The notes below the pieces were generated by a model that was not told where the DNA came from, ran no database searches, and was given only the letters and a program-made list of their open reading frames with translations. The translations under genes were made by a program, and so were the position numbers. A DNA stretch of 64,000 nucleotides from Raja brachyura (Eukaryota): positions 51,026,001 through 51,090,000 of the forward strand of contig OY740790.1 of assembly GCA_963514005.1 (NCBI GenBank), in the 5' to 3' direction. Position 1 is the first letter of the stretch. Every line of letters begins with the position of its first letter. Of the stretch, positions 11,461 to 64,000 are shown in pieces.

Positions 11461-12028
11461 ACCCACAGTCTTTTGATGAATAAATGCTTTATTGTTGATA
11501 GAAAACAGTGAGATACATCCAAATTTAATTCGACTCGTTACTGCAATCTTCATCGAATTCCAGCTTATTACGTTAAACATTAGAAAACTCGCATGATCTC
11601 CTTTATAGCTCGAAACACGCCCAAAAACACTTCTTAAATCCCACCCACAATATAACAGGCCGTCTAAAATTTAAAGGCACATGCCATCATCAATGACATT
11701 CAAAGCAGGCCAAATGGCCACTACAGTAGTTGCTTGGGAATTGAGAAATCTGAAATAGGATTGTGCAAAAACGTATTTTGTGCTACTTAGATTTTGTCCT
11801 TTCAAATTTAAGAGCCAACTTTAAATTTACATGTGAGTTAGAAGAGGGGCAATCTGAAGTATTTTAAATTTCTATTGAAGGGATAAATATGTCACAGAGA
11901 TCATTTCAGGTGCCAAATGGAAAATAATTCACATGAGGTTCCTTGAACACCATGAAAACACATGTTTTATGCATTATGTTGTTGCTGGTGTAACTAAAAA
12001 AAAGATGGTTAACCAATTCTGTAATGAG

Positions 12029-12544: not shown

Positions 12545-12755
12545 GGTAGACACAAAATGCTGGAGTAACTCAGCGGGTGTGGCAGCATCTATGGAGAGAA
12601 GGAATTGGCGATGTTTCGGGTCAAGACTGAAGAAGGGTCTCGACCCGAAACATCGGCAATTCCTTCTCTCCATAGATGCTGCCTCACTCACTGAGTTACT
12701 TCAGCATTTTGTGTCTACCTTCGATTTACCAGCATCTGCAGTTCTTTCTTAAACA
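12545..12755. mobile_element. Palindromic (fold-back) PLE-derived element with a hammerhead motif
   Basis: About 80-bp arms, 12545-12627 and 12637-12719, are reverse complements of each other; both strands encode AASMERRN in the ORF track. Confidence 0.88.
12627..12654 (+). ncRNA. Minimal type I hammerhead ribozyme motif (ACGU palindrome mutated to ACAU)
   Basis: CTGAAGA-A-GGGTC-TC-GACCC-GAAA-CATC. Confidence 0.6.
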
Positions 12756-12779
12756 AAATGTAGCTAACTTATTTTTTGT

Positions 12780-15799: not shown

Positions 15800-15885
15800 G
15801 AAGCTGCTCGATTCAGCAGGCCAGGCAGCATCTGTCAAAAGTAAAGAATAGGTGACGTCTCGCATCAGGACTCTTCTTCAGACAT
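15800..15885 (-). mobile_element. PLE-derived 3'-end fragment with a degenerate hammerhead
   Basis: ggcagcatctg...aataggtgacgtctcg...ttcttcagac. Confidence 0.65.
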
Positions 15886-16549
15886 ATCTTGTGGCTCCAT
15901 AAATGTTTTTGTTTAATCTTCTAGCTATAATGTGGCAGGAAACCGAGAGAGAAAAGAATCGGTAATGACTTTTGTTTAACAGGTTTATAGAAGATCTTTG
16001 AAATATCATCTTCTTTTACACTAATGTACTTCACACCTAACTTTATTTCACAAAGGTTCATTTTTAGAACTTGAAGCATTAGGGCCCACGGGAAAATTTT
16101 CTTGGTAGTATATTTTAGGATAACAAAATTACAGTTGAAGATAATAAAAGTGAACATTTGGTTGATGAGGATGCGAACCTAGGTACTGTCTAAATTCCAG
16201 TTTTCTTGCAGCATAGCAGCTTATGCAAAATACACCTTTCACACTAGGTTCAGAAAAAACAATCACATCATCCAAACTTTGGACCACAATTAAGGCTGTT
16301 TTGTAAACACAATGTAGGGTCAAAGTACAGTTGCTCCAAGAATACTCTGTAGTGTTTAAACTTGTCCAAACTCTTGCGCTTTGGTTATGAATTGCAACAG
16401 CAGTGTTCATCAATAACTCGGCTGTGGTTTCAACACAGTTCAAAGCCAGACGCTATTAGCCCTTCAGCTACTGTTAAACTTGAGTGGAAAGTTTGAGTCA
16501 AAGTCTCAGTTTGCTTTCAACTAGAGATGGTTGTGGTTAGCTAATAACT

Positions 16550-21549: not shown

Positions 21550-21740
21550 ACTTTGTGAGGAACTCCGTTCTGATCAGGCCGCATCCATTGAAGTAAATGG
21601 ACAGTCATTGTTTCAGATCGATAGCCTTCCTCAGGGCATATTGACCCAGAACATCAATTGTCCATTTTCACCCAGTTCCATCAGCAGTTTTGTTTTTTTT
21701 GTTCCAGATTTCAGCATCTGCAGTAATTTCTGTCTCTGAT
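21550..21740. mobile_element. Degenerate inverted PLE-derived pair
   Basis: aaatggacagtcattgtttc (minus arm) versus gaacatcaattgtccattt...cagcatctgcagt (plus arm). Confidence 0.6.
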
Positions 21741-23844
21741 AATATAAGTGAAGTGGTAGGTTCAGCCATTACATAAAATACTCATGATTGTGGTTTGTCC
21801 AGCGAATGGTGTATTTGGCCAAATGAATTTTAATTCCATCCATCACATCATAAATTCCATTGGGACATCTGACTATGTTTTTGACCAATGCTTTAGCAAT
21901 TATGTGTATCTCTATACCTTGGCAGTGATGAAGAGTTGATTTTTACCTCAGTCTGGTAGCTGGATGAGCCCATGTCACTTGGATCTCTTACTCACTTGTG
22001 CTAACTAACATTAGCACCCTTGCACAGATCAGCAATTTCCAAGTTGATCAGCAATCAGGGAGAACACTTTCTATTGTACAATGGTCTGCTGATTTTCGGA
22101 ACAGAAGACTTGAACACTCAAGTGGGTTTATTGCTTCAGAGTTGGTCATGGTGCCTTTGTGTATCTTTGATTTGCGTCTTCTGTAGCCGCTTGCTGTGCT
22201 AGTGCAGCTAGTTTACATTGCCAACAGCAGCTGCTATCATGCAAAGTAACATTACATTCTTTTCAGAATTTCAAATCACAATTGATTTTTTTTCTCTCAG
22301 TTATCCAGGCACATATGTAACTTAGAATTATGTCTTCCTGATTGTTCTTCAGTGCAGCTTGTCAAAGGGTCATTTTCTTTTCAGAATTAAAAATGCTGTT
22401 GGCTCAGGAAAGAAATGAAATTCAAGAAATATCAGAAATGTTGTCATTTGCCACCAACCTGCTTGTCTCCCTTTATGTGTATCTCAGTTTGATATTTGTC
22501 TTGCTATTTGAGCAGCTGATCCACTATGCAAATTCAGGAACAATCAACATTTTTTAACTGAATTAATATACCTTTTTGAGGACGATGAAGCCAGATAACT
22601 GGGGAAGGTTACCTGTTCCAGCTTGATGTGACAAGCTCAGCGAAACCTACTTGTGTATTATTTCTCTTCAATAGTTCTAGTAATTAATGGTTGTTCCTTT
22701 CCTGCTTTGGGGACAGGTGGATGGTTCGAGCATGTCATGTTGCATTTTTGCATCATTTCTGCTTTTATGTCAGATTATGTAATTCCAGGGTCTTTTGTAT
22801 TATAAAATTGCCTTCTTCGGTCACTGGTTCATCATTTCACTCAGGGGATGGGGAGTTGTTGCTTCAAACATTGACTTTTACTTGTCAGAGCCCACTTACA
22901 GTGGGAATTCGAATATAAATTAACCGGTAATTCAAATTAAGATGTCTGAATTAAACATGGTTTCAGTGGAGAGTATTTTTGCATTATTTTAATTCAAATT
23001 AACAGACCACTCAAATAAAATAGCCTTGCTACAAAGATCTCTAAAACAAAATCTTGTAGTTGCTAGTCAGACATAATAATTCTTGTTTTAAATGCAAAAA
23101 GATTCCTGTCACCCTGGGTCAAATGGCTTGAATGCTATGGTGCTGAAAATTACATAAATATTACAATAAGGCCCTTGAACATTAAGAATACCATTACAAT
23201 AGCCTCTTAAAATAAACCAAGAAACTATTTTAACCAGACGTATTAGTTAAACGTGCTTTGTACAAAATCTGATATCACTTTTTTTTCCACAGATTGTTTT
23301 GATTGTTCCCAGAATCTTTGATTTGATTCTCAACAGTTTTTGCTAATATGTTATGTATTCTTCGTAGCTTAAGTTTTTTTATCATACTTGAAAGATTCAA
23401 AGCAATTTTAAAAAAAGTTGTGTTTCTTCCATGCTCTTAAAATTGCATTTATAGAGTAACTTTAAAAACATTGACTTTTGATTGCTGGAAAACTAGTCCT
23501 ACCATTGTTTATCTTGACTAGAGTGATATTCACTTAATGGTATTCCGTCTCTCGATGTATGATTTGCAAATAAGTCAGTAAGTTACAAATTGGGGTGGTG
23601 ATTATTTATTGGACAGCAGCCTGTGTAATAAAGGTGAAAATAAAATTACACTCTCTTCTACCCCCACCCTCCCAGTCACATGTCAGACTATAGATTGAGA
23701 CATTTACAGCAGAACACCTCATGAGGTACACACTACATGTACGGTCATTGTAAATTCATTTCAGAAGCAGAGATTAATTTTCTGTTATACTTCCCGTGTA
23801 ATGAAAAACTTGTCTTATTTTAACACTGGACATCATATTCAAAA

Positions 23845-23938
23845 GATAGGCACAAAATGCTGGAGTAACTCAGCGAGACTGGCACCATCTCTGAATAGAA
23901 GGAATGGGTGACGTTTCGGGTCGAGACCTTCTTCAGAT
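23845..23938 (-). mobile_element. PLE-derived 3' end with a hammerhead motif (23910-23936)
   Basis: Reverse complement reads ctgaagaaggtctcgacccgaaacgtcaccc...gagttactccagcattttgtg. Confidence 0.8.
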
Positions 23939-24071
23939 GTTTCAATGGTTGCATCGCACTTTATGAAAGGCGTTATAAATTACCAGTATTTTATTCTTCA
24001 CTATTTTCCACTTCCACTCCAATTCCTAGCCATGAACATTTTCATGTTAGTTAAGTCACTAAAGCCAGGGG

Positions 24072-26606: not shown

Positions 26607-26790
26607 TAGCATCTATGGAGCGAAGGAAATGGGCAACATTTCAGGTGGAAACCCTTCAGACTCTGATGAAGAGTTTCAACCCCAAACGTTGCCTATTTCC
26701 TTCGCTCCATAAATGCTGCCTCACCCGCTGAGTTTCTCCAGCATTTTGGTCTACCTCCGATTTTCCAGCATCTGCAGTTCCTTCTTAAAC
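26607..26790. mobile_element. Inverted PLE-derived pair
   Basis: gcatctatggagcgaaggaaatgggcaac / gttgcctatttccttcgctccataaatgc arms around a degenerate ctgatgaag...aaacgtt core. Confidence 0.8.
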
Positions 26791-26849
26791 ATTACTTTTC
26801 TTCAGGTTCAATTTGTAGTCGGCCACAAAATGTTTAGAGGGACAAGTTT

Positions 26850-28229: not shown

Positions 28230-28909
28230 CTATGTTAAAAAGCTGTGGCCACAATTAAGATGCGCAGAGAATAGTACTTGTTGCATCTTGACAATCAGAA
28301 AATGTATTTTTATTTCCATTGTGCAACATCTACCTCCTAAGGCATTGCAAGGTTAATTCCAATTGTGCTCTCATTTTTGTTTTGCTAATAATCCCTCATG
28401 CAAAGGCTCAACGATGTCAAATAGATTAATCAGATGTAGATTGCAGGAAATGGAAGATGATGATTATTGTTCACAAGGCATATTGTATGATACTGAATTA
28501 GCCACAGGGAAGCAGGATTTTCTGAATCGAATTGATGTTTTGTTACGAACAAATATACTTATGCAACAAATTCTATATGCATTTACTGGAATGAGACGGC
28601 AAAGAATTCCATTCCCTAACTTCCTAAGCTGCACTTCTAATTTAAAATAACCAACCAAAGGCAATTTTCTCTCATTTCATTATTTCTCTGGAGATAATTT
28701 AATGGGAAAGTGTCTTTGGCCATAATAAACTTACACCTCAAATAGTCTGTCCCTGCATGCAGAATAACTGGGCAACATTCAAACATGAGGTGCAAAACAT
28801 CATCAACATCTCTATCATGAGTACCAGTCTTGAGCTAATTAGAGGGTTACACAAAAGGCTGGAGAAACTCAGCGGGTGCAGCAGCATCTAAGGAGCGAAG
28901 GAGATAGGC

Positions 28910-28937
28910 GACGTTTCGGGTCGAGACCCTTCTTCAG
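28910..28937 (-). ncRNA. Minimal type I hammerhead ribozyme, intact core
   Basis: Minus strand reads CUGAAGA-A-GGGUC-UC-GACCC-GAAACGUC; sense to the GIY-YIG ORF and downstream of it. Confidence 0.72.
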
Positions 28938-29160
28938 ACTGGTCAGGGATCAGGGAAACGAGAGATATAAACAGTGATGTGGAGAGATAAAGAACAATGA
29001 GTGAAAGATATGCAAAAAAGTATTGGTGATAAAGGAAGCAGGCCATTGTAAGCTGTTTGTGGTGTGAAAATGAGAAGCTAGTGCGACTGGGGGGGGGGAG
29101 ATGGAGAAGGAATGTCAGGGCCCGAGGGCTGAGGGAGAGGTGGGGAGGAGGCAGTCTGGG

Positions 29161-29694
29161 TTAACAGAATTTAGAAAATTCAATGTTTAAGCCCAGAGGA
29201 TGCAGACTCCCCAAGCGGAATATGAGGTGCTGTTCCTCCAACTTGCGGTGTTGCTCACTCTGGCCGTGGAGGAGGCCCAGGACCGAGAGGTCGGATACGG
29301 AGTGGGAGGGGGAGTTGAAGTGCTGAGCCACCGGGAGGTCGGGCTGGTTATTGCGGACCGAGCGGAGGTGTTCGGCGAAACGATCGCCCAGCCTCCGCTT
29401 GGTCTCACCGATGTAGATCAGCTGGCATCTGGAGCAACGGATGCAGTAGATGAGGTTGGAGGAGGTGCAGGTGAACCTCTGTCGGACTTGGAAGGACTGC
29501 TTGGGTCCCTGAAAGGAGTGGATGGGGGAGGTGAAGGGACAAGTGTAGCATCGCTTGCGGTTGCAAGGGAAAGTGCCCGGGGAAGGAGTGGAGCGGGAGG
29601 GAAGGGAAGAATTGACGAGGGAGTTGCAGAGGGAGCGGTCTTTGCGGAAGGCAGACGGGGGGAGATGGGAAGATGTGGCGAGTGGAGGGGTCAC
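29161..29694 (-). CDS. PLE C-terminal fragment: Cys-rich linker + GIY-YIG endonuclease (uninterrupted frame, no native start)
   Basis: CNRKRCYTC linker, NLIYCIRCSRCQLIYIGET, RFAEH, HFN, GLN motifs. Confidence 0.88.
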   Translation of the reverse strand: MTPPLATSSHLPPSAFRKDRSLCNSLVNSSLPSRSTPSPGTFPCNRKRCYTCPFTSPIHSFQGPKQSFQVRQRFTCTSSNLIYCIRCSRCQLIYIGETKRRLGDRFAEHLRSVRNNQPDLPVAQHFNSPSHSVSDLSVLGLLHGQSEQHRKLEEQHLIFRLGSLHPLGLNIEFSKFC

Positions 29695-29784
29695 ATTGGA
29701 GGTGGCGAATTAGACCCTCCCTCCCCACTTGACATTCAATAATCTTATCATCACCAAGTTCTCCATCTGTGGCGACAAAAGAGA

Positions 29785-29989
29785 CTACATAGGCTGGAAT
29801 ATTGAGCAAAAAAATAAAGTGCTCGAGAAACTCAATGGGCCTGCAGCATCTGTGGTGAGAGGTGGATAGTGAAGTTTCTGGTTAGAAACCTTCTTCAGAT
29901 AGAAGGAGCGGCTAGGAGATAGTTTAGTTTAGAGATACAGCATGGAAATAGACTCTTCGGCCCACCGAGTCTGTGCCGACCAGCGATCC

Positions 29990-30023: not shown

Positions 30024-30520
30024 GGGATAATTTACAATTTTACCAAGTCAATTAGCCAACAGATCTGTACGTCTTTGGAGTGTGGGAGCACCCTGAGAAA
30101 ACCCACACAAGTCATGGGGAGAATGCACAGACAGCTGATAGAAAGAGGTGAGGGGAAAGGGTGGGGTGAGAGCTGGAAAATATTACTGTCACTCGTACCA
30201 GCTCTTGTTCCACCTCTTGCCCTCTACGCCACCAGTCTGACGAGGGGGACCGACCAGAAATGTCTGTCCATGTCTCCGCGCGATTGCGGTCTGACCCACC
30301 AAGTGCCTCCAACAGAGACACAAGGGACAGTAGATGTTGGAATCTAACACAGTGCTGGAGTAACTCAGCGGGTCAGGCAGCATCTGTAGAGAGAATGGAT
30401 GGCCATTGATTCATGTTAGGACCCCTTTCGGGATCCTGAAAGGTCTGTACCCAAAACGTTGCATATGCGTTCCCTCTAGAGAAGGTACCTGACCCACTGA
30501 GTTTGAGATCCTCCAACAGT
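29785..30520. mobile_element. Two consecutive inverted PLE-derived pairs, the first enclosing a V-SINE
   Basis: Minus arm 29785-29900, plus arm about 30235-30312, minus arm about 30315-30430, plus arm about 30435-30520. Confidence 0.65.
29922..30135 (-). mobile_element. V-SINE (HE1-like) with an internal (CA)n expansion
   Basis: gtttagtttagagatacag tail, gtacgtctttggagtgtggga V-domain; (CA)n at 29992-30022. Confidence 0.85.
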
Positions 30521-33806: not shown

Positions 33807-34339
33807 ACAAGTTTATAGCCTCGCTGAAATGAATTTGCTTTTGTAGTCAAAATTGCAACGTTCTTCAGCTGTACAGTCTCATATTTCAACTGGAATGGAA
33901 GTTGGGATGTAATTCCATGGGCTGTAGTAAGATGCCACCAAGGTTTCCAAGTGAAAGAGGAGCCCGTAACCCTGAGAAAACAGATGTGTGAAGCTTGCTT
34001 AAGAAATGGTGCCATGTGATTTTGAGATCAACAATAGATATTTGGTTTTGTACCAAATTTTGTATGGAACTGTTTAATTATCTAGTTTTGCATACGAAAA
34101 GAGTGTTACTTGAAGATATGAAGTATGCATAAAGCTATTGTACTTGTTTTATCTGTGTGGTTAGAAGTGGGAGGTCGTGTGATGAAATCTCAAAGATGTG
34201 ACATTCAGAACTGGCAACCCCAATCAGCCAGAGATTACACTTTGTTCAATTTGTTTTTATTTTCAGATGTAGGTTATTATCCAGAAGAGAGATGGGCAGT
34301 TAATTTCACATTGTTATTGCAAATTATATTCAATATTTA

Positions 34340-37096
34340 TATTCAATATTCAGGAGGGATAGACGAAAAGGAAAAGGAGGTGGGGTAGCGTTGCTGGTGA
34401 GAGAGGAGATTAATGCAATAGAAAGGAAGGACATTAGCGTGGAGGATGTGGAATCGATATGGGTAGAGCTGCGAAACTCTAAGGGGCAGAAAACGCTAGT
34501 GGGAACTGTGTACAGGCCACCTAACAGTAGTATTGGAGTTGGGGATGGCATCAAACAGGAAATTAGAAATGCGTGCAACAAGGGTAACACGGTTATAATG
34601 GGTGACTTCAATCTGCATGTAGATTGGGTGAATCAAATTGGCAGGGGTGCTGAGGAAGAGGATTTCCTGGAATGTATGCGGGATAGTTTTCTCAACCAAC
34701 ATGTGGAGGAACCAACGAGAGAGCAGGCTATTCTAGACTGGGTATTGAGTAATGAGGAAGGGTTAGTTAGCAGTCTTGTTGTGCGTGGCCCCTTGGGCAA
34801 GAGTGACCATAATATGGTTGAGTTCTTCATTAGGATGGAGAGTGACAAAATTAAGTCAGAAACAAGGGTTCTGAACTTGAACAAAGGTAACTTTGAAGGT
34901 ATGAGATGTGAATTGGCCAAGATAGACTGGCAGGTGATTCTTAAAGGGTTGACAGTGGATGTGCAATGGAAGGTATTTAAAGACTGCATGAATGAAGTAC
35001 AAAAGTTGTTCATACCAGTTTGGCAAAAGAATAAATCGGGGAAGGTGGTGCATCCATGGATAACAAGGGAAATCAGGGATAGTATAAAAACAAAAGATGA
35101 GGCATACAAATTTGCCAGAAAAAGCAGCCTACCGGAGGACTGGGAGAAATTCAGAATCCAGCAGAGGAGGACAAAGGGCTTAATTAGGAAAGGGAAAATA
35201 GATTATGAAAGGAAACTGGCAGGGAACATAAAAACTGACTGCAAAAGTTTTTATAGATATGTAAAGAGAAAGAGACTAGTTAAAACAAATGTTGGTCCCT
35301 TGCAGTCAGAAACAGGTGAATTGATCATGGGGAACAAGGACATGGCAGACCAATTGAATAACTACTTTGGTTCTGTCTTCACTAAGGAAGACATAAATAA
35401 TCTGCCGGAAATAGCAGTGGAACGGGGGTCAAATAAGATGGAGGAACTGAGTGAAATCCAGGTTAGCCGGGAGGTGGTGTTGGGTAAATTGAACGGATTG
35501 AAGGCCGATAAATCCCCAGGGCCAGATAGTCTGCATCCCAGAGTACTCAAGGAGGTAGCCACAGAAATAGTGGATGCATTAGTGATAATTTTTCAAAATT
35601 CCTTAGATTCTGGAGTAGTTCCTGAGGATTGGAGGGTAGCTAATGTAACCCCACTTTTTAAAAAAGGAGGGAGAGAGAAAGCGGGGAATTACAGACCAGT
35701 TAGTCTAACATCGGTAGTGGGGAAACTGCTAGAGTCAGTTATTAAAGATGGGATAGCAGCGCATTTGGAAAGTGGTGAAATCATTGGACAAAGTCAGCAT
35801 GGATTTACGAAAGGTAAATCATGTCTGACAAATCTGATAGAATTTTTCGAGGATGTAACTAGTAGAGTGGATAAGGGAGAACCAGTGGATGTGTTATATC
35901 TAGACTTTCAGAAGGCTTTCGACAAGGTCCCGCATAAGAGATTAGCATACAAACTTAAAGCACACGGTATTGGGGGTTCAGTATTGATGTGGATAGAGAA
36001 CTGGCTAGCAGACAGGAGGCAAAGGGTAGGAGTAAACGGGTCCTTTTCAGAATGGCAGGCAGTGACTAGTGGGGTGCCGCAAGGCTCAGTGCTGGGACCC
36101 CAGCTATTTACAATATATATTAATGATTTGGACGAGGGAATTCAATGCAACATCTCCAAATTTGCAGATGATACCAAGCTGGGGGGTATAGTTAGGTGTG
36201 AGGAGGATGCTTGGAGGCTGCAGGGTGATTTGGATAGGCTGAGTGAATGGGCAGATGCATGGCAGATGCAGTACAATGTGGATAAATGTGAGGTTATCCA
36301 CTTTGGTGGCAAAAACATGAGGGTAGACTATTATCTGAATGGTGGCAGATTAGGTAAGGGGGATATGCAACGAGACCTGGGTGTCATGGTACACCAGTCA
36401 TTGAAAGTAGGCATGCAGGTGCAGCAGGCAGTGAAGAAAGCAAATGGTATGTTAGCATTCATAGCGAAAGGATTTGAGTATAGGAGCAGGGAGGTTCTAC
36501 TGCAGTTGTACAGGGTTTTGGTGAGGCCACACCTGGAGTACTGCGTACAGTTTTGGTCTCCAAATCTGAGGAAAGACATCCTTGCCATAGAGGGGGTACA
36601 GAGAAGATTCACCAGACTGATTCCTGGGATGTCAGGACTTTCATATGAGGAAAGATTGGATAGACTCGGTTTGTACTCGATGGAATTTAGAAGATTGAGG
36701 GGGGATCTTATAGAAACCTACAAAATTCTTAAGGGGTTGGACAAGCTAGATGCTGGAAGATTGTTCCCGATGTTGGGGGAGTCCAGAACAAGGGGTCACA
36801 GTCTAAGGATAAGGGGGAATTCCTTTAGGACCGAAATGAGGAAAACATTCTTTACACAGAGAGTGGTGAGTCTCTGGAATTCTCTGCCACAGAAGGTAGT
36901 TGACGCCAGTTCATTGGCTATATTTAAGAGGGCGTTAGATGTGGCACTTGTGGCTAAAGGGATCAGGGGGTATGGAGAGAAGGCAGGTACGGGATACTGA
37001 GTTGGATGATCAGCCATGATCACATTGAATGGCGGTGCAGGCTCGAAGGGCCGAATGGCCTACTCCTGCACCTATTTTCTATGTTTCTATGTTTCT
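34340..37096 (+). mobile_element. Young CR1 (HER1-like) LINE, 5'-truncated within the endonuclease
   Basis: Open frame from about YSIFRRDR to the stop at 37000; 3' stem-loop; (TTTCTATG)n tail. Confidence 0.97.
34391..37000 (+). CDS. CR1 ORF2 (partial APE endonuclease + complete RT), 869 aa uninterrupted
   Basis: YRPP, GDFN, SDH, NYRPVSLTS, YLDFQKAFDKV, GVPQGSVLGP, KFADD motifs. Confidence 0.93.
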   Translation: MLVREEINAIERKDISVEDVESIWVELRNSKGQKTLVGTVYRPPNSSIGVGDGIKQEIRNACNKGNTVIMGDFNLHVDWVNQIGRGAEEEDFLECMRDSFLNQHVEEPTREQAILDWVLSNEEGLVSSLVVRGPLGKSDHNMVEFFIRMESDKIKSETRVLNLNKGNFEGMRCELAKIDWQVILKGLTVDVQWKVFKDCMNEVQKLFIPVWQKNKSGKVVHPWITREIRDSIKTKDEAYKFARKSSLPEDWEKFRIQQRRTKGLIRKGKIDYERKLAGNIKTDCKSFYRYVKRKRLVKTNVGPLQSETGELIMGNKDMADQLNNYFGSVFTKEDINNLPEIAVERGSNKMEELSEIQVSREVVLGKLNGLKADKSPGPDSLHPRVLKEVATEIVDALVIIFQNSLDSGVVPEDWRVANVTPLFKKGGREKAGNYRPVSLTSVVGKLLESVIKDGIAAHLESGEIIGQSQHGFTKGKSCLTNLIEFFEDVTSRVDKGEPVDVLYLDFQKAFDKVPHKRLAYKLKAHGIGGSVLMWIENWLADRRQRVGVNGSFSEWQAVTSGVPQGSVLGPQLFTIYINDLDEGIQCNISKFADDTKLGGIVRCEEDAWRLQGDLDRLSEWADAWQMQYNVDKCEVIHFGGKNMRVDYYLNGGRLGKGDMQRDLGVMVHQSLKVGMQVQQAVKKANGMLAFIAKGFEYRSREVLLQLYRVLVRPHLEYCVQFWSPNLRKDILAIEGVQRRFTRLIPGMSGLSYEERLDRLGLYSMEFRRLRGDLIETYKILKGLDKLDAGRLFPMLGESRTRGHSLRIRGNSFRTEMRKTFFTQRVVSLWNSLPQKVVDASSLAIFKRALDVALVAKGIRGYGEKAGTGY

Positions 37097-37493
37097 AAAT
37101 GATATCATGAATGATTTGCAGTTAATTTGTTAACTTCATAATCCAAAAATATGAGGGAGAATGTATTTCTGTATTTATGTAGGACTGTGAGATCAGTGAG
37201 GCGAATACTAATATGGAAGGGCAGTAGAGAATAAGGAGGAGGCGTTGGGGTTCTTGAAGTCCTTGGGGCCTGATGAGATCTATCCCTGATTTTGAGACTG
37301 GGAAGACAGAGGATTTCAGGAGCATTGATGAAGATCTTTGTATCTTCTCTAGCCACAGAGGAGGCCCTGAAGGGCTGGAGAGAAGCCAATTTAGTGTGGA
37401 CACTTTAATGAGCAATTTTGGAAAAAGATTGCGGACCAATATGTGAGAGGAAGAAGTGATATATATTGATGTGATGATGATGATGGAGTTTTC

Positions 37494-37760
37494 TTTAGTT
37501 TAGAGATACGGCACGGAAACAGGCCCTTCCGTGCACCGAGTCCGCACAGACCAGTGATCCCCGCATATTAACACTATCCTACACACACTAGGGACAATTT
37601 ACACACAAACCAAGCCAATTAGCCTACATACTTGTACGTCTTTGGAGTGCGGGAGGAAACCGAAGATCTTGGGGGAAACCCACGCAGGTCACGGGGAGAA
37701 TGTACAAACTCTGTACAGGCACCACCCGTAGTCGGGATTGAATCCGGATATCCGGCGCTA
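37494..37760 (-). mobile_element. V-SINE (HE1-like); copies at 39981-40247 and 42468-42734
   Basis: tttagtttagagatac tail, gtacgtctttggagtgcgggaggaaaccg V-domain, and a box-B-like gggattgaatcc. Confidence 0.88.
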
Positions 37761-38218
37761 CAAATCTTTATACACTTTAAAGTGATTTGTCATAATAATG
37801 CTGACCTGCACACATTTGGTGCTAGATTCCCCAAATTATGTGGTGCTTGTGCTGGTTGGAGAGAATTGTCCTCATTGTTGAAGTTTTAGAGATAAACTTT
37901 CTGGAGTACAAAATACAACATTATATCATTTTGAAATGGGATGACAACTGTAGAAGAGCAAATAATGCATTTTCATGCCAAAATGCTAAACATCTGTATG
38001 CTAATATCTCAGCATCATTTAGTTTCTTACTGTTCCTGCAAAAAGTATATTTTAAATTGTCTTTTTTTTTAAGCTGTAAACTTAAGTTTAAATTGAATGG
38101 TAGTGCTTTATTTTAATTGTAAACTGCCTGGTTGAAAGAAGTGCTCCGTGCTGACTTATTGTGAAATGAACTGTTTATCTCTCTGACACTTTTTGAAAAT
38201 CCCGAATTGCCTGTTGAA

Positions 38219-39487
38219 ATGGTTTATTCTCTTGAAGGGATAGCAGCGCATTTGGAAAGTGGTGAAATCATTGGACAAAGTCAGCATGGATTTACGAAAG
38301 GTAAATCATGTCTGACAAATCTGATAGAATTTTTCGAGGATGTAACTAGTAGAGTGGATAAGGGAGAACCAGTGGATGTGTTATATCTAGACTTTCAGAA
38401 GGCTTTCGACAAGGTCCCGCATAAGAGATTAGCATACAAACTTAAAGCACACGGTATTGGGGGTTCAGTATTGATGTGGATAGAGAACTGGCTAGCAGAC
38501 AGGAGGCAAAGGGTAGGAGTAAACGGGTCCTTTTCAGAATGGCAGGCAGTGACTAGTGGGGTGCCGCAAGGCTCAGTGCTGGGACCCCAGCTATTTACAA
38601 TATATATTAATGATTTGGACGAGGGAATTCAATGCAACATCTCCAAATTTGCAGATGATACCAAGCTGGGGGGTATAGTTAGGTGTGAGGAGGATGCTTG
38701 GAGGCTGCAGGGTGATTTGGATAGGCTGAGTGAATGGGCAGATGCATGGCAGATGCAGTACAATGTGGATAAATGTGAGGTTATCCACTTTGGTGGCAAA
38801 AACATGAGGGTAGACTATTATCTGAATGGTGGCAGATTAGGTAAGGGGGATATGCAACGAGACCTGGGTGTCATGGTACACCAGTCATTGAAAGTAGGCA
38901 TGCAGGTGCAGCAGGCAGTGAAGAAAGCAAATGGTATGTTAGCATTCATAGCGAAAGGATTTGAGTATAGGAGCAGGGAGGTTCTACTGCAGTTGTACAG
39001 GGTTTTGGTGAGGCCACACCTGGAGTACTGCGTACAGTTTTGGTCTCCAAATCTGAGGAAAGACATCCTTGCCATAGAGGGGGTACAGAGAAGATTCACC
39101 AGACTGATTCCTGGGATGTCAGGACTTTCATATGAGGAAAGATTGGATAGACTCGGTTTGTACTCGATGGAATTTAGAAGATTGAGGGGGGATCTTATAG
39201 AAACCTACAAAATTCTTAAGGGGTTGGACAAGCTAGATGCTGGAAGATTGTTCCCGATGTTGGGGGAGTCCAGAACAAGGGGTCACAGTCTAAGGATAAG
39301 GGGGAATTCCTTTAGGACCGAAATGAGGAAAACATTCTTTACACAGAGAGTGGTGAGTCTCTGGAATTCTCTGCCACAGAAGGTAGTTGACGCCAGTTCA
39401 TTGGCTATATTTAAGAGGGCGTTAGATGTGGCACTTGTGGCTAAAGGGATCAGGGGGTATGGAGAGAAGGCAGGTACGGGATACTGA
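38219..39487 (+). CDS. Chimeric junction ORF: unique-DNA ATG fused in frame to CR1 RT (no endonuclease)
   Basis: gaaATGg at 38219, then MVYSLE|GIAAHLES...; the listed ORF starts at TTG 38207. Expression is unknown. Confidence 0.45.
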   Translation: MVYSLEGIAAHLESGEIIGQSQHGFTKGKSCLTNLIEFFEDVTSRVDKGEPVDVLYLDFQKAFDKVPHKRLAYKLKAHGIGGSVLMWIENWLADRRQRVGVNGSFSEWQAVTSGVPQGSVLGPQLFTIYINDLDEGIQCNISKFADDTKLGGIVRCEEDAWRLQGDLDRLSEWADAWQMQYNVDKCEVIHFGGKNMRVDYYLNGGRLGKGDMQRDLGVMVHQSLKVGMQVQQAVKKANGMLAFIAKGFEYRSREVLLQLYRVLVRPHLEYCVQFWSPNLRKDILAIEGVQRRFTRLIPGMSGLSYEERLDRLGLYSMEFRRLRGDLIETYKILKGLDKLDAGRLFPMLGESRTRGHSLRIRGNSFRTEMRKTFFTQRVVSLWNSLPQKVVDASSLAIFKRALDVALVAKGIRGYGEKAGTGY

Positions 39488-40705
39488 GTTGGATGATCAG
39501 CCATGATCACATTGAATGGCGGTGCAGGCTCGAAGGGCCGAATGGCCTACTCCTGCACCTATTTTCTATGTTTCTATGTTTCTAAATGATATCATGAATG
39601 ATTTGCAGTTAATTTGTTAACTTCATAATCCAAAAATATGAGGGAGAATGTATTTCTGTATTTATGTAGGACTGTGAGATCAGTGAGGCGAATACTAATA
39701 TGGAAGGGCAGTAGAGAATAAGGAGGAGGCGTTGGGGTTCTTGAAGTCCTTGGGGCCTGATGAGATCTATCCCTGATTTTGAGACTGGGAAGACAGAGGA
39801 TTTCAGGAGCATTGATGAAGATCTTTGTATCTTCTCTAGCCACAGAGGAGGCCCTGAAGGGCTGGAGAGAAGCCAATTTAGTGTGGACACTTTAATGAGC
39901 AATTTTGGAAAAAGATTGCGGACCAATATGTGAGAGGAAGAAGTGATATATATTGATGTGATGATGATGATGGAGTTTTCTTTAGTTTAGAGATACGGCA
40001 CGGAAACAGGCCCTTCCGTGCACCGAGTCCGCACAGACCAGTGATCCCCGCATATTAACACTATCCTACACACACTAGGGACAATTTACACACAAACCAA
40101 GCCAATTAGCCTACATACTTGTACGTCTTTGGAGTGCGGGAGGAAACCGAAGATCTTGGGGGAAACCCACGCAGGTCACGGGGAGAATGTACAAACTCTG
40201 TACAGGCACCACCCGTAGTCGGGATTGAATCCGGATATCCGGCGCTACAAATCTTTATACACTTTAAAGTGATTTGTCATAATAATGCTGACCTGCACAC
40301 ATTTGGTGCTAGATTCCCCAAATTATGTGGTGCTTGTGCTGGTTGGAGAGAATTGTCCTCATTGTTGAAGTTTTAGAGATAAACTTTCTGGAGTACAAAA
40401 TACAACATTATATCATTTTGAAATGGGATGACAACTGTAGAAGAGCAAATAATGCATTTTCATGCCAAAATGCTAAACATCTGTATGCTAATATCTCAGC
40501 ATCATTTAGTTTCTTACTGTTCCTGCAAAAAGTATATTTTAAATTGTCTTTTTTTTTAAGCTGTAAACTTAAGTTTAAATTGAATGGTAGTGCTTTATTT
40601 TAATTGTAAACTGCCTGGTTGAAAGAAGTGCTCCGTGCTGACTTATTGTGAAATGAACTGTTTATCTCTCTGACACTTTTTGAAAATCCCGAATTGCCTG
40701 TTGAA

Positions 40706-41974
40706 ATGGTTTATTCTCTTGAAGGGATAGCAGCGCATTTGGAAAGTGGTGAAATCATTGGACAAAGTCAGCATGGATTTACGAAAGGTAAATCATGTCT
40801 GACAAATCTGATAGAATTTTTCGAGGATGTAACTAGTAGAGTGGATAAGGGAGAACCAGTGGATGTGTTATATCTAGACTTTCAGAAGGCTTTCGACAAG
40901 GTCCCGCATAAGAGATTAGCATACAAACTTAAAGCACACGGTATTGGGGGTTCAGTATTGATGTGGATAGAGAACTGGCTAGCAGACAGGAGGCAAAGGG
41001 TAGGAGTAAACGGGTCCTTTTCAGAATGGCAGGCAGTGACTAGTGGGGTGCCGCAAGGCTCAGTGCTGGGACCCCAGCTATTTACAATATATATTAATGA
41101 TTTGGACGAGGGAATTCAATGCAACATCTCCAAATTTGCAGATGATACCAAGCTGGGGGGTATAGTTAGGTGTGAGGAGGATGCTTGGAGGCTGCAGGGT
41201 GATTTGGATAGGCTGAGTGAATGGGCAGATGCATGGCAGATGCAGTACAATGTGGATAAATGTGAGGTTATCCACTTTGGTGGCAAAAACATGAGGGTAG
41301 ACTATTATCTGAATGGTGGCAGATTAGGTAAGGGGGATATGCAACGAGACCTGGGTGTCATGGTACACCAGTCATTGAAAGTAGGCATGCAGGTGCAGCA
41401 GGCAGTGAAGAAAGCAAATGGTATGTTAGCATTCATAGCGAAAGGATTTGAGTATAGGAGCAGGGAGGTTCTACTGCAGTTGTACAGGGTTTTGGTGAGG
41501 CCACACCTGGAGTACTGCGTACAGTTTTGGTCTCCAAATCTGAGGAAAGACATCCTTGCCATAGAGGGGGTACAGAGAAGATTCACCAGACTGATTCCTG
41601 GGATGTCAGGACTTTCATATGAGGAAAGATTGGATAGACTCGGTTTGTACTCGATGGAATTTAGAAGATTGAGGGGGGATCTTATAGAAACCTACAAAAT
41701 TCTTAAGGGGTTGGACAAGCTAGATGCTGGAAGATTGTTCCCGATGTTGGGGGAGTCCAGAACAAGGGGTCACAGTCTAAGGATAAGGGGGAATTCCTTT
41801 AGGACCGAAATGAGGAAAACATTCTTTACACAGAGAGTGGTGAGTCTCTGGAATTCTCTGCCACAGAAGGTAGTTGACGCCAGTTCATTGGCTATATTTA
41901 AGAGGGCGTTAGATGTGGCACTTGTGGCTAAAGGGATCAGGGGGTATGGAGAGAAGGCAGGTACGGGATACTGA
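40706..41974 (+). CDS. Second copy of the chimeric RT ORF
   Basis: Identical to 38219-39487, shifted by 2487 bp. Confidence 0.45.
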   Translation: MVYSLEGIAAHLESGEIIGQSQHGFTKGKSCLTNLIEFFEDVTSRVDKGEPVDVLYLDFQKAFDKVPHKRLAYKLKAHGIGGSVLMWIENWLADRRQRVGVNGSFSEWQAVTSGVPQGSVLGPQLFTIYINDLDEGIQCNISKFADDTKLGGIVRCEEDAWRLQGDLDRLSEWADAWQMQYNVDKCEVIHFGGKNMRVDYYLNGGRLGKGDMQRDLGVMVHQSLKVGMQVQQAVKKANGMLAFIAKGFEYRSREVLLQLYRVLVRPHLEYCVQFWSPNLRKDILAIEGVQRRFTRLIPGMSGLSYEERLDRLGLYSMEFRRLRGDLIETYKILKGLDKLDAGRLFPMLGESRTRGHSLRIRGNSFRTEMRKTFFTQRVVSLWNSLPQKVVDASSLAIFKRALDVALVAKGIRGYGEKAGTGY

Positions 41975-44039
41975 GTTGGATGATCAGCCATGATCACATT
42001 GAATGGCGGTGCAGGCTCGAAGGGCCGAATGGCCTACTCCTGCACCTATTTTCTATGTTTCTATGTTTCTAAATGATATCATGAATGATTTGCAGTTAAT
42101 TTGTTAACTTCATAATCCAAAAATATGAGGGAGAATGTATTTCTGTATTTATGTAGGACTGTGAGATCAGTGAGGCGAATACTAATATGGAAGGGCAGTA
42201 GAGAATAAGGAGGAGGCGTTGGGGTTCTTGAAGTCCTTGGGGCCTGATGAGATCTATCCCTGATTTTGAGACTGGGAAGACAGAGGATTTCAGGAGCATT
42301 GATGAAGATCTTTGTATCTTCTCTAGCCACAGAGGAGGCCCTGAAGGGCTGGAGAGAAGCCAATTTAGTGTGGACACTTTAATGAGCAATTTTGGAAAAA
42401 GATTGCGGACCAATATGTGAGAGGAAGAAGTGATATATATTGATGTGATGATGATGATGGAGTTTTCTTTAGTTTAGAGATACGGCACGGAAACAGGCCC
42501 TTCCGTGCACCGAGTCCGCACAGACCAGTGATCCCCGCATATTAACACTATCCTACACACACTAGGGACAATTTACACACAAACCAAGCCAATTAGCCTA
42601 CATACTTGTACGTCTTTGGAGTGCGGGAGGAAACCGAAGATCTTGGGGGAAACCCACGCAGGTCACGGGGAGAATGTACAAACTCTGTACAGGCACCACC
42701 CGTAGTCGGGATTGAATCCGGATATCCGGCGCTACAAATCTTTATACACTTTAAAGTGATTTGTCATAATAATGCTGACCTGCACACATTTGGTGCTAGA
42801 TTCCCCAAATTATGTGGTGCTTGTGCTGGTTGGAGAGAATTGTCCTCATTGTTGAAGTTTTAGAGATAAACTTTCTGGAGTACAAAATACAACATTATAT
42901 CATTTTGAAATGGGATGACAACTGTAGAAGAGCAAATAATGCATTTTCATGCCAAAATGCTAAACATCTGTATGCTAATATCTCAGCATCATTTAGTTTC
43001 TTACTGTTCCTGCAAAAAGTATATTTTAAATTGTCTTTTTTTTTAAGCTGTAAACTTAAGTTTAAATTGAATGGTAGTGCTTTATTTTAATTGTAAACTG
43101 CCTGGTTGAAAGAAGTGCTCCGTGCTGACTTATTGTGAAATGAACTGTTTATCTCTCTGACACTTTTTGAAAATCCCGAATTGCCTGTTGAAATGGTTTA
43201 TTCTCTTGAAGGGATAATGCTTTGACTTTAATCCAAGGTTGCATCTTAATGACCAATCTGAACACCTTAGTCCAAAGTGGGCAGAAGCAGAAGTGGTAAC
43301 GTTGAACCTTTGCAGCGACTGTCTTCTCAAATAACCTTCTATTAAGAAAAAAAAACTTTTCTATTCCAGATTCCTTTTAATATTGAATCAATGTGGATTT
43401 TCAATGACGTGAAAAGAAGAAAATAAATGCAGGCTGCAGAGTAAATGAGAGACTTTCTCTTTTCTGTGTATATAATACGATATAACAACTCCCCTTGTCA
43501 TGGATGAGAGCTATTATAGTGTAGAGATGAATGTTACTGAGAGCCACAGAAGTAGATTGCAATACACCTCATGAAAGGTTTTTGTCTGCTGTTTCAACTT
43601 GCTGTTAACTGTGACAAAAGCATTACATGTACTGGCCCAAATGTTATAACCTGCACTTGCACCTTGCAAAACAAAGGAGTCATAATACAGTGCTGAACAA
43701 AGCATTTAGAATAGGGAGACTGCAATGTAAACAGAATTGTTCAGCTCTGATTGATAGTATTCTATTTAATGTAACCCATTCAGGACTGCACACATAAATG
43801 GATGTAATCCATAAAAAACATTCTGAGGTAGAATTTTCTAATAACAAATTGTCATGTTCATGTATGTTGATGGTTTTTGTTTCTATTAGATTCAGTTGTT
43901 CTCTATTTGTGAAGAATCTGATTTTTTTTAAATTTGTTTAAGCTTTGCACATTGTAACAATACTTATTAGGCATTTGAATTTTGCAAGATGGTGGGGTTG
44001 GATAAGGGTCAGGAGCCATTTTCCTCTATTTCAGTAATT

Positions 44040-47225: not shown

Positions 47226-47249
47226 GGGACATTTAGAGCTGTAACAACT

Positions 47250-49590: not shown

Positions 49591-49667
49591 AAATTTTTTT
49601 TTTTAAGTGATTAGACCTGCTGCTTGCTGGGAGTAAGGGAGGTCAGAAATCAGGGTCTAGATGAACG

Positions 49668-50150
49668 GTAGATAAACATAAAAAGCTGGAGTAACTCAGC
49701 GGGACAGGCAGCCTCTCTGGAAAGAAGGAACGGGTGACGTTTCAGGCCGAGACCCTTCTCAGACTGGTTAGGGATAAGGGAACGAGAGAGATAGACGATG
49801 ATGTAGAGTGATAAAGAACAATGAATCTTCTTCTTGCGTATGGCGTGCACAGCCTACAGTAGGTCAACTATTTCTATTTGATCTTGTTTGTGCACATCCG
49901 GTTGATTGCATAGTAGAAACAGGGTAGACCACATGAAGGTTGCAATCTCCCCACCACGAACAATGATGAAAGATATGCAAAAAAAAGTAACGATGATAAA
50001 AGAAACAGAACATGTAAGTTGATTGTTGGGTGAAAACAAGATCTAGTGCGACTTGGGTAGGGGATGGATAGAGAGAGGTGGAATGCCGGGGTTACTTGAA
50101 GTTGGAGAGATCAGTGGGCTGTAAGCTGCCCAGTCGAAATATACGGCGCA
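49668..50150 (-). mobile_element. PLE 3' end (last GIY-YIG codons + UTR + degenerate hammerhead)
   Basis: Collinear with 28844-29230. Confidence 0.85.
49825..49957 (-). mobile_element. Short retroposon with a (GAA)n tail and 9-bp TSD (tentatively Vingi-like)
   Basis: Minus-strand end cacgccatacgcaagaagaaga; gaacaatga at 49816-49824 and 49958-49966. Confidence 0.65.
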
Positions 50151-57268: not shown

Positions 57269-58524
57269 GGATATCAACTAAATGTTTTTTGACTTTCAAT
57301 AGTGAAAGAGTTGATTTTTTAAAGAAAAATTGACATTTTATCCATTTTGGATGCAAATACCTTCGAATTTATTTCATACTTTGTCATCATGATCACCACC
57401 AAATAACGAATTTTCTTTATTTTAAAGCATGTGATGACCCAGACTTAAAAACATTGGCTATTTGCAGCATATTTCTGAGCAGATTACCAAAGTTGATTTT
57501 CCTCCCCGAATGAGCATAGTTAAAAAAAACCTGTGATATGTAATCAATGCTTTATTTTCTCACTGTGGGCAGTGCTGGTGATCAGCAACTAACCTGTAGC
57601 TGTGCACATTAGACGAGGCCTGGTGCAAGATTAACGTGTCCAGGGCTTCCATTGCATTTGTAATAGTTTTATATCTGTGTGGAAGGAATCCATCTCCACA
57701 CTGGACTGGATCATCTGATTGAACATCTGCCAAAGGCCCTGATAGTTTGCGGTTGCAATGCACACGCATGGCTGTCAGACAATGAGCCTGCTTAACTCCC
57801 AACTGAGCTGATGATATTGCTTCCGCCCTTTGGCAGGTGATAGACATGCAAAGCGTTGATGCTTTTTGTCTGCTGATTCCATGTCTATAATCTGAGACGT
57901 GAGAATCTGAAAAATGCTTCAAATGGCTTTTTGTATATAAATCACAATATATTATGACCTGCTCCCACCTTCATTTTATTATCTGTCCAAAACACCTCTT
58001 CCTTGTCAGCTAGTATTTTAGACACACAAAATTAGAGAAGCAAAGTTCACCAATTTCACTCAATCACTCAGGATTCCCTAACTGAACCAGAGATTCCGGG
58101 AAAGGTTGGAGTCTTACTTGGCTGGAACTTCTCAACAGTCAGCAGTTCACTTGCATTAAACTGTTCATTAAGCATTTTATCGGGATGCATCACAGCTTAG
58201 TTTGGTAACAGCGCCATCCAAGACCGCAAGAAATTGCAGCAAAAAATTGTGGTCGGAGCCAGGACCATCACACAAACCAATCTCCCTTCCGTTGACTCCA
58301 TTTATACCTCACGCTGCCTCGGCAAGGCCAGCAGCATAATCAAGGACGAGTCTCACCCTGGCCACTCCCCTCTTGCATCGGGCAAAAGATATAGAAATGT
58401 GAAAACGCATACCTCCAGATTTAGGAACAGTTTCTTCAAATCAGGCAACTGAACCATCCTACCACAAATAGAGAGCAGTCCTGAACTACTATGTACTTCA
58501 TTGGTGACCCTCGAACTATCTTTG

Positions 58525-58950
58525 TTTAAGAAAGAACTGCAGATGCTGGAAAAATCGAAGGTAGACAAAAATGCTGGAGAAACTCAGTGGGTGAGGCAGC
58601 ATCTATGGAGAGAAGGAATAGGCGACGTTTCGGGTTGAGACCTTCAGACTGTTGTCGGGGGGGGGGGGGGGAAGGGGAAAGAAAAGAAGAGGCGGAGACA
58701 ATAGGCTTGTGGGAGAACTGGGAAGAGGGGGGAGAAAGCAAGGACTATCTGAAATTGGTGAAGTCAATGTTCATACCGCTGGGGTATAAACTTCCCATTT
58801 CTCCCACAAGTCCTACTGTCTCCGCCTACTTCCTTTCTCTTTAATGCCCCACCCCACCCCCGACATCTGTCTGAAGAAGGGTCTGGTCCCGAAACGTCGC
58901 CTATTCCTTTGCTCCATTGATGCTGCCTCACCCGCTGAGACTCTCACATG
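58525..58950. mobile_element. Inverted PLE 3'-end pair inserted in Rex with a 7-bp TSD
   Basis: atctttg at 58518-58524 and 58951-58957; minus arm includes the last GIY-YIG codons; plus arm has a hammerhead at 58871-58898. Confidence 0.87.
58871..58898 (+). ncRNA. Minimal hammerhead motif (one stem II mismatch)
   Basis: CTGAAGA-A-GGGTC-TG-GTCCC-GAAACGTC. Confidence 0.6.
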
Positions 58951-59830: not shown

Positions 59831-60624
59831 TCAGTCTAAAAATTACTTAAGTGGAACAAAGGAAGTAAACTCACATAGTTGTAGGGAATAGTCATGAAGT
59901 ATTCTAAACAACAAATACTTTGGAATTTGTTGATGAAAATCACCACAAACAACAAAGTAGGGCATCGAAACGAGGACCCAAACTTTGTTCAGTAAATAGT
60001 TCTGTATTAAGTAAAAGAAAATAACCTAAAAGTTCTAAATATTCAATTTTACTGTGAAAAATAGGCAATTGTAGTAAAGCACAAATAATTATTTTGGCTG
60101 AGAACTCTTCAACTACGTTATAACAGCATCTATGACCAAGCCTCGGGTGACACAATAATGGCATTGCTCAATGAAAACTTGAGGCAGAGCCTGTGGAGCA
60201 ATGGAAGAGAGGTTGGGTTGTTGACGGTGCCAAATGGCTAGGGTCGGGACTGTTTTCAGGAAGGATCAAGAGCTGTGAGTCTCAATGTGAATTTCATTGA
60301 TGTTTGGAGCTTAGAGGCAAACTGGGAGGGCATTTCAACACGCGATTTTTTAGGCGACTTGGCTGTCACCACATGTTCGTCGTGGTGTAGCCTGTATGGC
60401 CGTGAGTAGTCTCCTCAGTCGCCCAAAGAGTCGTAGTGTATTTCTGGTCGCCGCAATGTTGAACATGTTTCAGCGACAATGGGTTTGACGCATATGAGCG
60501 TTCCTTGACTTCTCCTGATGTAGGTGCTATGGTAGAATGTCGCCAGGTTAACGTAGTTGTCACCAGGATGATGTAGGTTGTCGCCGGTGCTGACTTCCAT
60601 TGGGACTACCTACGTCAACCGGCG

Positions 60625-61359
60625 GTAGACAGAATTGCTGGAGGAACCAAGCTGGCGAGGCAGTATCTATGGAGTGAAGGAATAGGTGACGTTTCGGGTC
60701 AAGACCCTTCTTCAGACTGATGTGTGGGGGGGGGGGGGTGAAGAAGAAAGGAAGAGGCGGAGTCAGTAGGCTGTGGGAGAGCTGGGAAGGGGAGGGGAAG
60801 GAGGGAGAAAGCATGAGCTACCTGAAATTGGAGGTCAATATTCATACCGCTGGGGTGTAAATTGCCCAAGCGAAATACGGGGTGCTGCTCCTCCAATTTG
60901 CAGGGGCCATGGAGGAGGCCTAGGACAGAAAGGTCGGATTCGGAATGGGAGGGGGCGTTGAAGTGCAGGGCCACCGGAAGATCAGGTTGGTTAATGCGAA
61001 CCGAGCGGAGGTGTTGGGCAAAGCGATCGCCAAACCTGCGCTTGGTCTCACCAATGCAGAGCAGTTGACACCTAGAGCAGCGGATGCAATAGATGAGGTT
61101 GGAGGAGGTGCAGGTGAACCTCTGCCTCACCTGGAAAGACTGCTTGGGTCCTTGGATGGAGTCGAGGGGGGAGGTAAAACGACAAGTATAGCATTTCCTG
61201 TGGTTGCAAGGGAAAGTACCAGGGAAAGGGATGGTTTGGGTGGGAAGGGTGAATTGACCAGGGAGTTACGGAGGGAGCGGTCTCTGCGAAAAGCCGAAAG
61301 GGGAGCAGATGGGAAGATGTGGCCAGTGGTGCGATCCCATTGGAGGTGGAGGTTGGAGG
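60625..61359 (-). mobile_element. Neptune-type PLE, 5'-truncated, with a 14-bp TSD
   Basis: GIY-YIG remnant 60699-61130 (NLIYCIRCSRCQLLCIGET); TSD tacgtcaac[c/t]ggcg at 60611-60624 and 61360-61373. Confidence 0.92.
60688..60715 (-). ncRNA. Minimal type I hammerhead ribozyme, intact core
   Basis: Minus strand reads CUGAAGA-A-GGGUC-UU-GACCC-GAAACGUC. Confidence 0.72.
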
Positions 61360-63985: not shown

Positions 63986-64000
63986 TTCTTGTTCTTATTC

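Follow-up and report, generated by a model that had tools for sequence, protein, structure and literature searches.

Minimal hammerhead ribozymes reside in the pseudo-long terminal repeats (pLTRs) of metazoan Penelope-like elements (PLEs), including the Xena, Poseidon and Neptune elements of fish, and an extra A of the kind met below has been published for them (PMC4209133). Related minimal motifs cleave weakly as dimers (PMC4209133), and one of nine dimers was cleaved in a recent preprint (Li et al. 2026, bioRxiv 10.64898/2026.07.22.740005). In the anole Poseidon element PAc, the protein nicks and extends both target strands with uncut RNA as the main template, the hammerhead is dispensable for insertion, and cleavage needs the protein (PMC11167929). 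For head-to-head PLE repeats, Arkhipova et al. 2013 (PMC3846280) proposed that an antisense template undergoes self-priming, and both the mode of PLE transposition and the role of the hammerhead are open questions (PMC8557442, PMC11167929). Here we describe a hammerhead-bearing PLE of the Neptune type, together with its very numerous short copies, starting from a 64,000-nt stretch of the Raja brachyura genome (GCA_963514005.1, contig OY740790.1, positions 51,026,001 to 51,090,000), hereafter the window. We put a probability of roughly 65% on the reading that the short copies are leader-only run-off products ('stubs') of the element, in which transcription would start 3 nt before the hammerhead core and reverse transcriptase (RT) would run off that end of the RNA.

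Element positions are counted from the C of CUGAAGA (position 0), and cleavage is predicted between +27 and +28. The window features on which the argument draws are these:

28844..29707, minus strand: 5'-truncated young Neptune-type insertion (end of the open reading frame (ORF), 3' untranslated region (UTR), hammerhead, leader hairpin), 97% identical to a 3,965-bp unit; its 3' limit is at +93, and the 35-nt tail is missing
28837-28843 and 29708-29714: 7-bp duplication AATTAGA flanking that insertion
29161..29709, minus strand: C-terminal piece of the ORF, with a CX4CX2C linker and a GIY-YIG endonuclease with CCHH (translation; PF01541, E=1.5e-4)
28910..28937, minus strand: minimal type I hammerhead motif (pattern match; architecture as in PMC4209133)
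28936..28942, minus strand: Initiator match CCAGTCT, with a putative start of transcription at 28940 (3 nt 5' of the core), placed by the 5'-end pile-up of short copies
60624..61348, minus strand: second long copy, from a sister subfamily (81% identical), with an intact motif at 60688-60715

The insertion at 28844-29707 is 96-99% identical to 40 other places scored in the 2.7-Gb genome. The full unit is 3,965 bp long and stands in four complete head-to-tail copies at C18:46361252-46377113, an array with five hammerheads spaced 3,965-3,966 bp apart; the motif thus occupies the pLTR, as PLE minimal hammerheads do, with two copies per tandem element as their type. In these units the N-terminal part and a 1,033-codon RT-endonuclease frame are not in one frame; a copy longer than the window insertion has a single 776-codon frame with RVT_1 and C-terminal GIY-YIG matches, both below curated cut-offs, as well as DKG and YIDD motifs. 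The 29161-29709 translation is 97% identical to residues 611-776 of this frame, and the nearest named relatives of the protein come from sharks and rays, which points to a cartilaginous-fish host. The linker before the endonuclease, CNRKRCYTC, fits the CX2-5CxxC pattern of Neptune elements, a linker found in Nematis and Naiad too (PMC8557442); a CCHH motif (CIRC...H...H) lies inside the domain. The ORF starts ~165 nt after the hammerhead core, and a pLTR, partial tandems, an inverted 5' arm and an optional 30-40-bp tail are all present. Young copies end at ~+93 or ~35 nt later (~+128), a difference that is the optional PLE tail; in the anole element, the limits of this tail are the two RT start sites (PMC11167929). 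An apparent intron at one long-copy junction was rejected as a one-off deletion. As judged from its sequence, then, the carrier is a young Neptune-type PLE; of four runs of contigs from other organisms, three cover the length of the element and the fourth a part of it, and they mark no starts or ends and no dependable joints.

The hammerhead lies in the pLTR of this element, ~220 nt 3' of the stop codon of the GIY-YIG frame; the initial annotation of the window had likewise placed it downstream of that frame and in sense orientation. It consists of CUGAAGA, the extra A, a stem II of GGGU/ACCC, GAAA and a palindromic ACGU, with the predicted cut after GUC, between 28910 and 28909. These segments supply the core CUGANGA...GAAA...UH of PLE minimal hammerheads and a stem II (A + GGGU/ACCC) in which G10.1 pairs with C11.1 and position 9 is followed by an unpaired base; the ACGU palindrome at 15.1-16.1 replaces helix III as the dimer interface (self-duplex -1.7 kcal/mol), and stem I, already suspected to be very short, can form 2 bp at most (U-A or U-G; G-C). 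Exact matches to the 27-nt pattern CTGAAGAAGGGTCNNGACCCGAAACGT occur at 28911-28937 (-) and 60689-60715 (-) and single-mismatch matches at 12627 (+) and 58871 (+), against none in 100 shuffles, which confirms the motifs recognised at 28910-28937 and 60688-60715; these two are on the same strand, 31.8 kb apart. That the loop varies over a retained stem was correct as an observation (UC in one copy, UU in the other), but the difference is a C-to-T change at a CpG and therefore no evidence of selection. Rfam at gathering thresholds gave no match in the window, a result that is uninformative against so minimal a motif.

The origin of the short copies was read from the ends of 103 young copies, the first on contig C1 (its first 3 Mb), anchored downstream of the ribozyme so as to be blind to the 5' end; three apparently short copies among them were reassigned as long copies of a sister subfamily. 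Fifty-five 5' ends fall at -8..+2 (mode -4/-3) and 19 at +4..+37, while 29 copies are long, and no end lies between -11 and -71. Genome-wide, 11,198 perfect matches start from -3 and 5,333 contain 8 further upstream bases. Most insertions have their 3' end at +93 or +128. Duplications of at least 7 bp flank 23 of 50 non-inverted short copies (shuffled-flank mean 3.4), mostly directly at the junction, with no common head or exon, and the short copies are dispersed as monomers or head-to-head pairs. At C1:3050290-3057580 one hairpin stub occurs three times, ~3.5 kb apart, as a local tandem duplication. Two sources were rejected for the short copies as a class: random 5' truncation alone, given the absence of ends from -11 to -71, and cleavage, given a 5' peak at -3 and not at +28. 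The fixed ends and duplications, together with ORF-bearing members in all subfamilies, therefore mark the short copies as a distinct product made by the element, which probably arose by reverse transcription of only the leader of its own RNA, and as no separate family.

The initial annotation had instead proposed an independent family resembling short interspersed nuclear elements (SINEs) or retrozymes, whose short source copies would be mobilised by Neptune protein in trans, a reading we now consider quite improbable. It would explain the defined 5' and 3' ends with their duplications, the ORF end found upstream in only 39 of 443 random matches, and the larger number of variants in short than in long copies; retrozymes have moreover been proposed to derive from pLTRs (bioRxiv 10.64898/2026.07.22.740005). 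Yet each of the six subfamilies into which 367 of 402 full-span copies fall (1-15% internal divergence) has ORF-bearing long members (76, 11, 2, 10, 3 and 3 copies), leaving room only for minor short-only lineages, and the main short-copy variant (stem II GGGUUUCGGCCC) is found in long copies too. No head sequence stands between duplication and core: the duplications adjoin the front edge of the ribozyme, where a SINE would have its Pol III head (tRNA, 5S or 7SL). Nor did we find the short tandem repeats with a canonical type I hammerhead that mark retrozymes, the motif being minimal, the copies monomers or inverted pairs, and a tandem array of the module being absent from the 15 Tandem Repeats Finder rows in the window. 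Stubs from -3 also lack the first two Initiator bases, and the second priming site, which hairpin pairs need, is missing from those that end at +93.

The fixed 5' end coincides with a promoter-like sequence. CCAGTCT at -5..+1 matches the Initiator consensus YYANWYY at 7/7 positions (matched by hand; consensus from PMC4581360), and sister subfamilies carry TCAGTC, the Drosophila Initiator form (PMC4581360). On a scale where A(-3) is +1, CGACC occupies +18..+22, the place of Bridge part I, and the motif ten element and downstream promoter element (DPE) match at 9/12 and 5/6 positions, all with exact spacing; two subfamilies break CGANC, so these downstream motifs are a lead only. The Penelope element of D. 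virilis has an internal promoter of the Initiator/DPE type (PMC2377424). Hand counts over 100 non-C junctions, the first in a set of 4,464, showed G before A(-3) in 54 (28% expected, p=7e-8), compared with 16/100 at position 0, and untemplated G in L1 and SVA has been attributed to cap copying (PMC3287187). We infer that a capped RNA may start at A(-3). Minimal motifs in metagenomes have the same architecture, with a 4-7-bp stem II and mostly a 2-3-bp stem I; their upstream sequence is mostly CTTCTT, not the Initiator-like CAGT, so overlap with a promoter may be lineage-specific.

A fixed end could also arise without a transcription start, if RT that had started in the 3' repeat stalled, or its product were trimmed, at the ribozyme through RNA structure or a bound protein. 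Some ends at +6..+9 and +20..+22 do coincide with stem II, and leader and tail are predicted to form a long helix that includes CUGAAGAAGG and has its base near -2. We nevertheless regard a stall as unlikely, since the main peak at -4..-3 has a G excess specific to it and an Initiator match, about half of the perfect copies read through the site, and almost no ends occur in the next 60 nt upstream, which suggests two template classes over a leaky stall. The CAG before the core, which follows pyrimidine-rich sequence in several subfamilies, might alternatively be a splice acceptor, and the D. virilis Penelope intron ends at helix I (PMC4209133). That the short copies derive from spliced RNA is hardly credible, however: their flanks are unrelated and share no upstream exon, the duplications adjoin the junction, the AG itself is kept in many copies, and among the best-supported joints listed from contigs of related organisms none falls there consistently.

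The head-to-head pairs carry information on priming. In 53 of 58, the two arms end on different sides of +104 (the shorter one at this position or before it), typically at +93 and +128, where chance would give such asymmetry in about half (a few pairs may have a common origin), and this asymmetry agrees with a model in which the two nicked strands both prime, each at a different site. In the run-off mechanism that we propose, Pol II would start at A(-3) from an internal promoter, making the hammerhead the first 31 nt of a capped RNA, and a start there would limit stem I to 2-3 bp. The element's protein would nick the target and prime at one of two internal sites (+93 or +128). Priming in the 3' repeat copy would yield long insertions, randomly truncated or full-length, whereas priming in the 5' repeat copy would end in run-off at the RNA start after 97-131 nt, leaving a stub; a hairpin stub would result where the two nicked strands both prime, each at its own site. 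The template would be copied uncut in the great majority of events, with cleavage, if any, being rare and probably needing both protein and a tandem partner. Genomic stubs would mostly be dead on arrival and then decay.

The core of the ribozyme is identical in the six subfamily majority sequences except for C17/U17, the changes in stem II affect only the loop or produce G-U pairs (one sister subfamily pairs via two G-U wobbles), and base 1.1, opposite U, is A or G only. Stem II covariation had been named as a check; among the six subfamilies of this genome we saw no two-sided change, only one-sided ones or changes in the loop; among the matches listed in other organisms' contigs (a redundant set), 86 of 124 form a stem II of at least 4 bp with varied sequence. 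Position 17 is C or U in 84 of these 86 listed motifs, and stem I measures 2-3 bp in 57 of them, so a 2-bp stem I may be normal for the class. Core A's differ from the majority at 30/822 against 90/1,098 for other invariant A's, a difference that A-run alignment and unresolved subfamilies may explain, and core U16.1 changes at no lower rate than other T's (23/277 against 159/2,463). With the core, stem II, extra base after position 9 and palindrome of PLE minimal hammerheads, the motif is on sequence evidence a hammerhead by descent.

Copy ends place a limit on its use. Junction patterns for +28, +31 and +25, which differ slightly in length and CpG content, matched 394, 236 and 131 times; inspection by eye found true junctions at 12/20, 18/20 and 14/20 loci, giving ~236, ~212 and ~92. 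There is no clear peak at +28, cut-site starts make up less than 1% of at least 67,600 young copies, and 0/25 full-length upstream junctions have cut-site ends. These counts, from which mutated continuous copies have been removed, bear on the alternative that efficient dimer cleavage of tandem transcripts, yielding unit RNAs or circles, is a regular step of the cycle. Its appeal lies in a core invariant across subfamilies but for C17/U17, in stem changes that keep pairing, in the same architecture with freely covarying stem II elsewhere (the 86/124 listed matches), in tandem arrays that place two motifs in one RNA, and in two duplication-flanked arrays that restart at +28 in 6/6 and 4/4 units; cut RNAs may also be destroyed, leaving no copies. 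We hold it to be very improbable in view of the junction counts at and around the cut site, a stem II predicted at 1% or less in 5/6 leaders, and published relatives that cleave weakly, need protein, or fail (PMC4209133; PMC11167929).

The run-off account as a whole must be tempered by several observations that weigh against it. Divergence from the reference is higher in short young copies (4.3%) than in long ones (1.6%), which is partly due to sister subfamilies and leaves room for some short source copies; moreover, all 103 copies lie in the first 3 Mb of one chromosome, the three-fold local duplication among them. A is also frequent before A(-3) (35/100); a lone G was resolved by the duplication at only 1/30 loci and, in a second set, an extra G at 3/23 (G, G, GG), and untemplated purine addition could contribute to the extra-G signal. 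Sorting of 20 loci each by eye puts plain non-inverted junctions at ~158 for +28 against ~59 for +31 and ~33 for +25, an excess of ~3-5-fold, and the two arrays flanked by duplications restart at +28 in every unit (6/6 and 4/4). This excess and these arrays mean that the statement 'never cut' is not supported.

The arrays, at C1:74835228-74835645 (6 units) and C1:117724438-117724728 (4 units), are built of 62-63-nt units that follow an extra G or AG and lack the hammerhead, the last unit reaching the tail end; they may be a trace of cleaved RNA or descend from one shared source locus. A third array of this kind, with a 61-nt period, appears in the +28 junction listing at C2:55272483, and none in those for +31 or +25. 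We would give rare cleavage a chance slightly short of even. More doubtful is the wider picture in which all of these traces combine: the hammerhead, as the first 31 nt of the capped RNA, would overlap the Pol II core promoter, the same bases serving as promoter and as a protein-gated ribozyme normally folded off, while stubs would record the start, the priming sites and two-strand priming, and the +28 arrays rare germ-line cleavage. We put this forward tentatively.

Folding predictions place stem II at 1% or less in 5/6 subfamily leaders and at 20-40% in the other one, since the core, being rich in purines, finds partners downstream. For its CUGAAGAAGG half the predicted partner is CCUUCUUUA in the tail (L077:5214-5345, a part of the C18 array) and, in shorter leaders, CCUAUCUCCUUC. 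Either pairing would keep the ribozyme inactive; the tail partner CCUUCUUUA is weakly conserved. For two strands, the one-site active dimer is predicted at -9.7 kcal/mol against -19.7 kcal/mol for the best fold, and whole leaders are no more stable than their shuffles (z -0.34 and +0.50). Intact motifs lie ~60-85 kb apart per strand, and given this spacing, a 4-bp interface worth -1.7 kcal/mol, a 2-bp stem I and a competing leader fold without stem II, the suggestion that half-ribozymes pair in cis in host pre-mRNAs appears unlikely; the result argues against a broad half-ribozyme effect on host transcripts.

The extreme abundance claimed at the outset holds. The exact 28-mer occurs 56,295 times genome-wide, and a version with free non-core bases (core and stem II intact) 63,094 times, with reversed controls at 0; one young subfamily alone gives 67,600 exact matches to a 33-mer. 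A structural descriptor found 31 matches in 920 kb (control 0), or ~90,000 genome-wide. The module as a whole, intact or not, matched 403 times in 810 kb (81 stretches of 10 kb at round coordinates, pair arms counted singly; reversed control 0), which extrapolates to ~1.34 million copies (bootstrap 1.16-1.53 million), roughly 5-7% of them intact. Minimal motifs number ~4,000 in coelacanth and ~9,000 in Xenopus (PMC4209133), and axolotl is reported to have up to 120,000 hammerheads (PMC7229834), so that motif density is high here but the count is no record.

In the window, a profile search found 30 related pieces that cover all 20 places where related copies had been noticed, and only 2 of the 30 retain the core with a 4-bp stem II, in keeping with the remark that not all copies keep the core; a separate profile built from the window gave 28 matches, and 0 on the reversed window. 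The remaining modules are as follows:

12546..12762: head-to-head pair of short modules, arms ending near +91 and +135
26608..26799 and 30292..30518: decayed head-to-head pairs of short modules
58500..58939: two opposite modules ~190 bp apart; the plus-strand copy has an intact core and a stem II mismatch
23838..23939, minus strand: short module from -3, core intact, stem II lacking one G
49657..50091, minus strand: module with part of the 3' UTR, one core base deleted
1-50, 4388-4579 (pair), 5572-5675, 15811-15893, 21557-21747 (pair): decayed modules, none intact
29757-29919, 30217-30314, 47241-47387, 48253-48384, 50920-50985: decayed modules, none intact
53818-53875 (pair, runs into N), 54826-54940, 57181-57269, 62355-62472, 63902-63988: decayed modules, none intact

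A run of 159 N at 53877-54035 cuts the module at 53835-53875 and makes the end of that copy unreadable. Elsewhere in the window, a 2,487-bp stretch stands three times at 35747-43216 with 99.98% identity, either as a very recent tandem duplication or as an assembly expansion; it holds the 3' part of a long interspersed nuclear element (LINE) with APE endonuclease and RT, whose frames comprise 898 codons at 34304-37000 and 440 codons at both 38165 and 40652. Other LINE RT fragments lie at 9930-11537 (-) and 1-1787 (+) (RVT_1; Exo_endo_phos_2).

Ribozyme and element thus belong to known kinds, and the finding as first described is unsurprising. Its value lies in the copy ends: at least 67,600 near-identical young insertions with readable junctions, which predict the exact base of the start, two sites of priming, priming from two strands, and no more than ~1% of templates cut. 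In the full texts searched we found no account of the motif in cartilaginous fish, of a fixed start, of leader-only stubs or of the arm asymmetry; the supplements of PMC4209133 and of the 2026 preprint, whose sampling included one cartilaginous fish, may list the motif.

Compared with the minimal hammerheads of PMC4209133, stem II is 4-5 bp here against 7-8 bp in Schistosoma, stem I is 2 bp, as in D. virilis, against 4-5 bp typically, and 63,000-90,000 motifs are intact against the ~4,000 and ~9,000 of coelacanth and Xenopus; solo motifs are there 'probably truncated PLEs', and a fixed 5' end is not described. Non-LTR retrozymes (PMC7229834, Li et al. 2026) are likewise hammerhead-bearing, non-coding, pLTR-related and very numerous, but consist of tandem repeats of 170-400 nt, carry type I hammerheads that are canonical and active, and form circular RNAs, in contrast to the monomers and inverted pairs with a minimal motif seen here. 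The element itself agrees with known endonuclease-bearing Neptune PLEs (PMC8557442, PMC3846280) in its single RT and GIY-YIG ORF, DKG, CX2-5CxxC and CCHH motifs, pLTR, inverted arm and one-sided tail, and departs from what is reported there in that stubs of the leader alone, starting sharply at the front edge of the ribozyme, make up ~70-90% of insertions. The 53/58 arm asymmetry fits two-strand, two-site priming better than the self-priming of Arkhipova et al. 2013 (PMC3846280). The closest functional parallel is the anole PAc (PMC11167929), which belongs to a different clade, whose ORF starts inside stem II against ~165 nt after the core here, and for which leader-only run-off products are not described in the main text; it resembles the present element in its pair of internal RT start sites, which delimit the tail.

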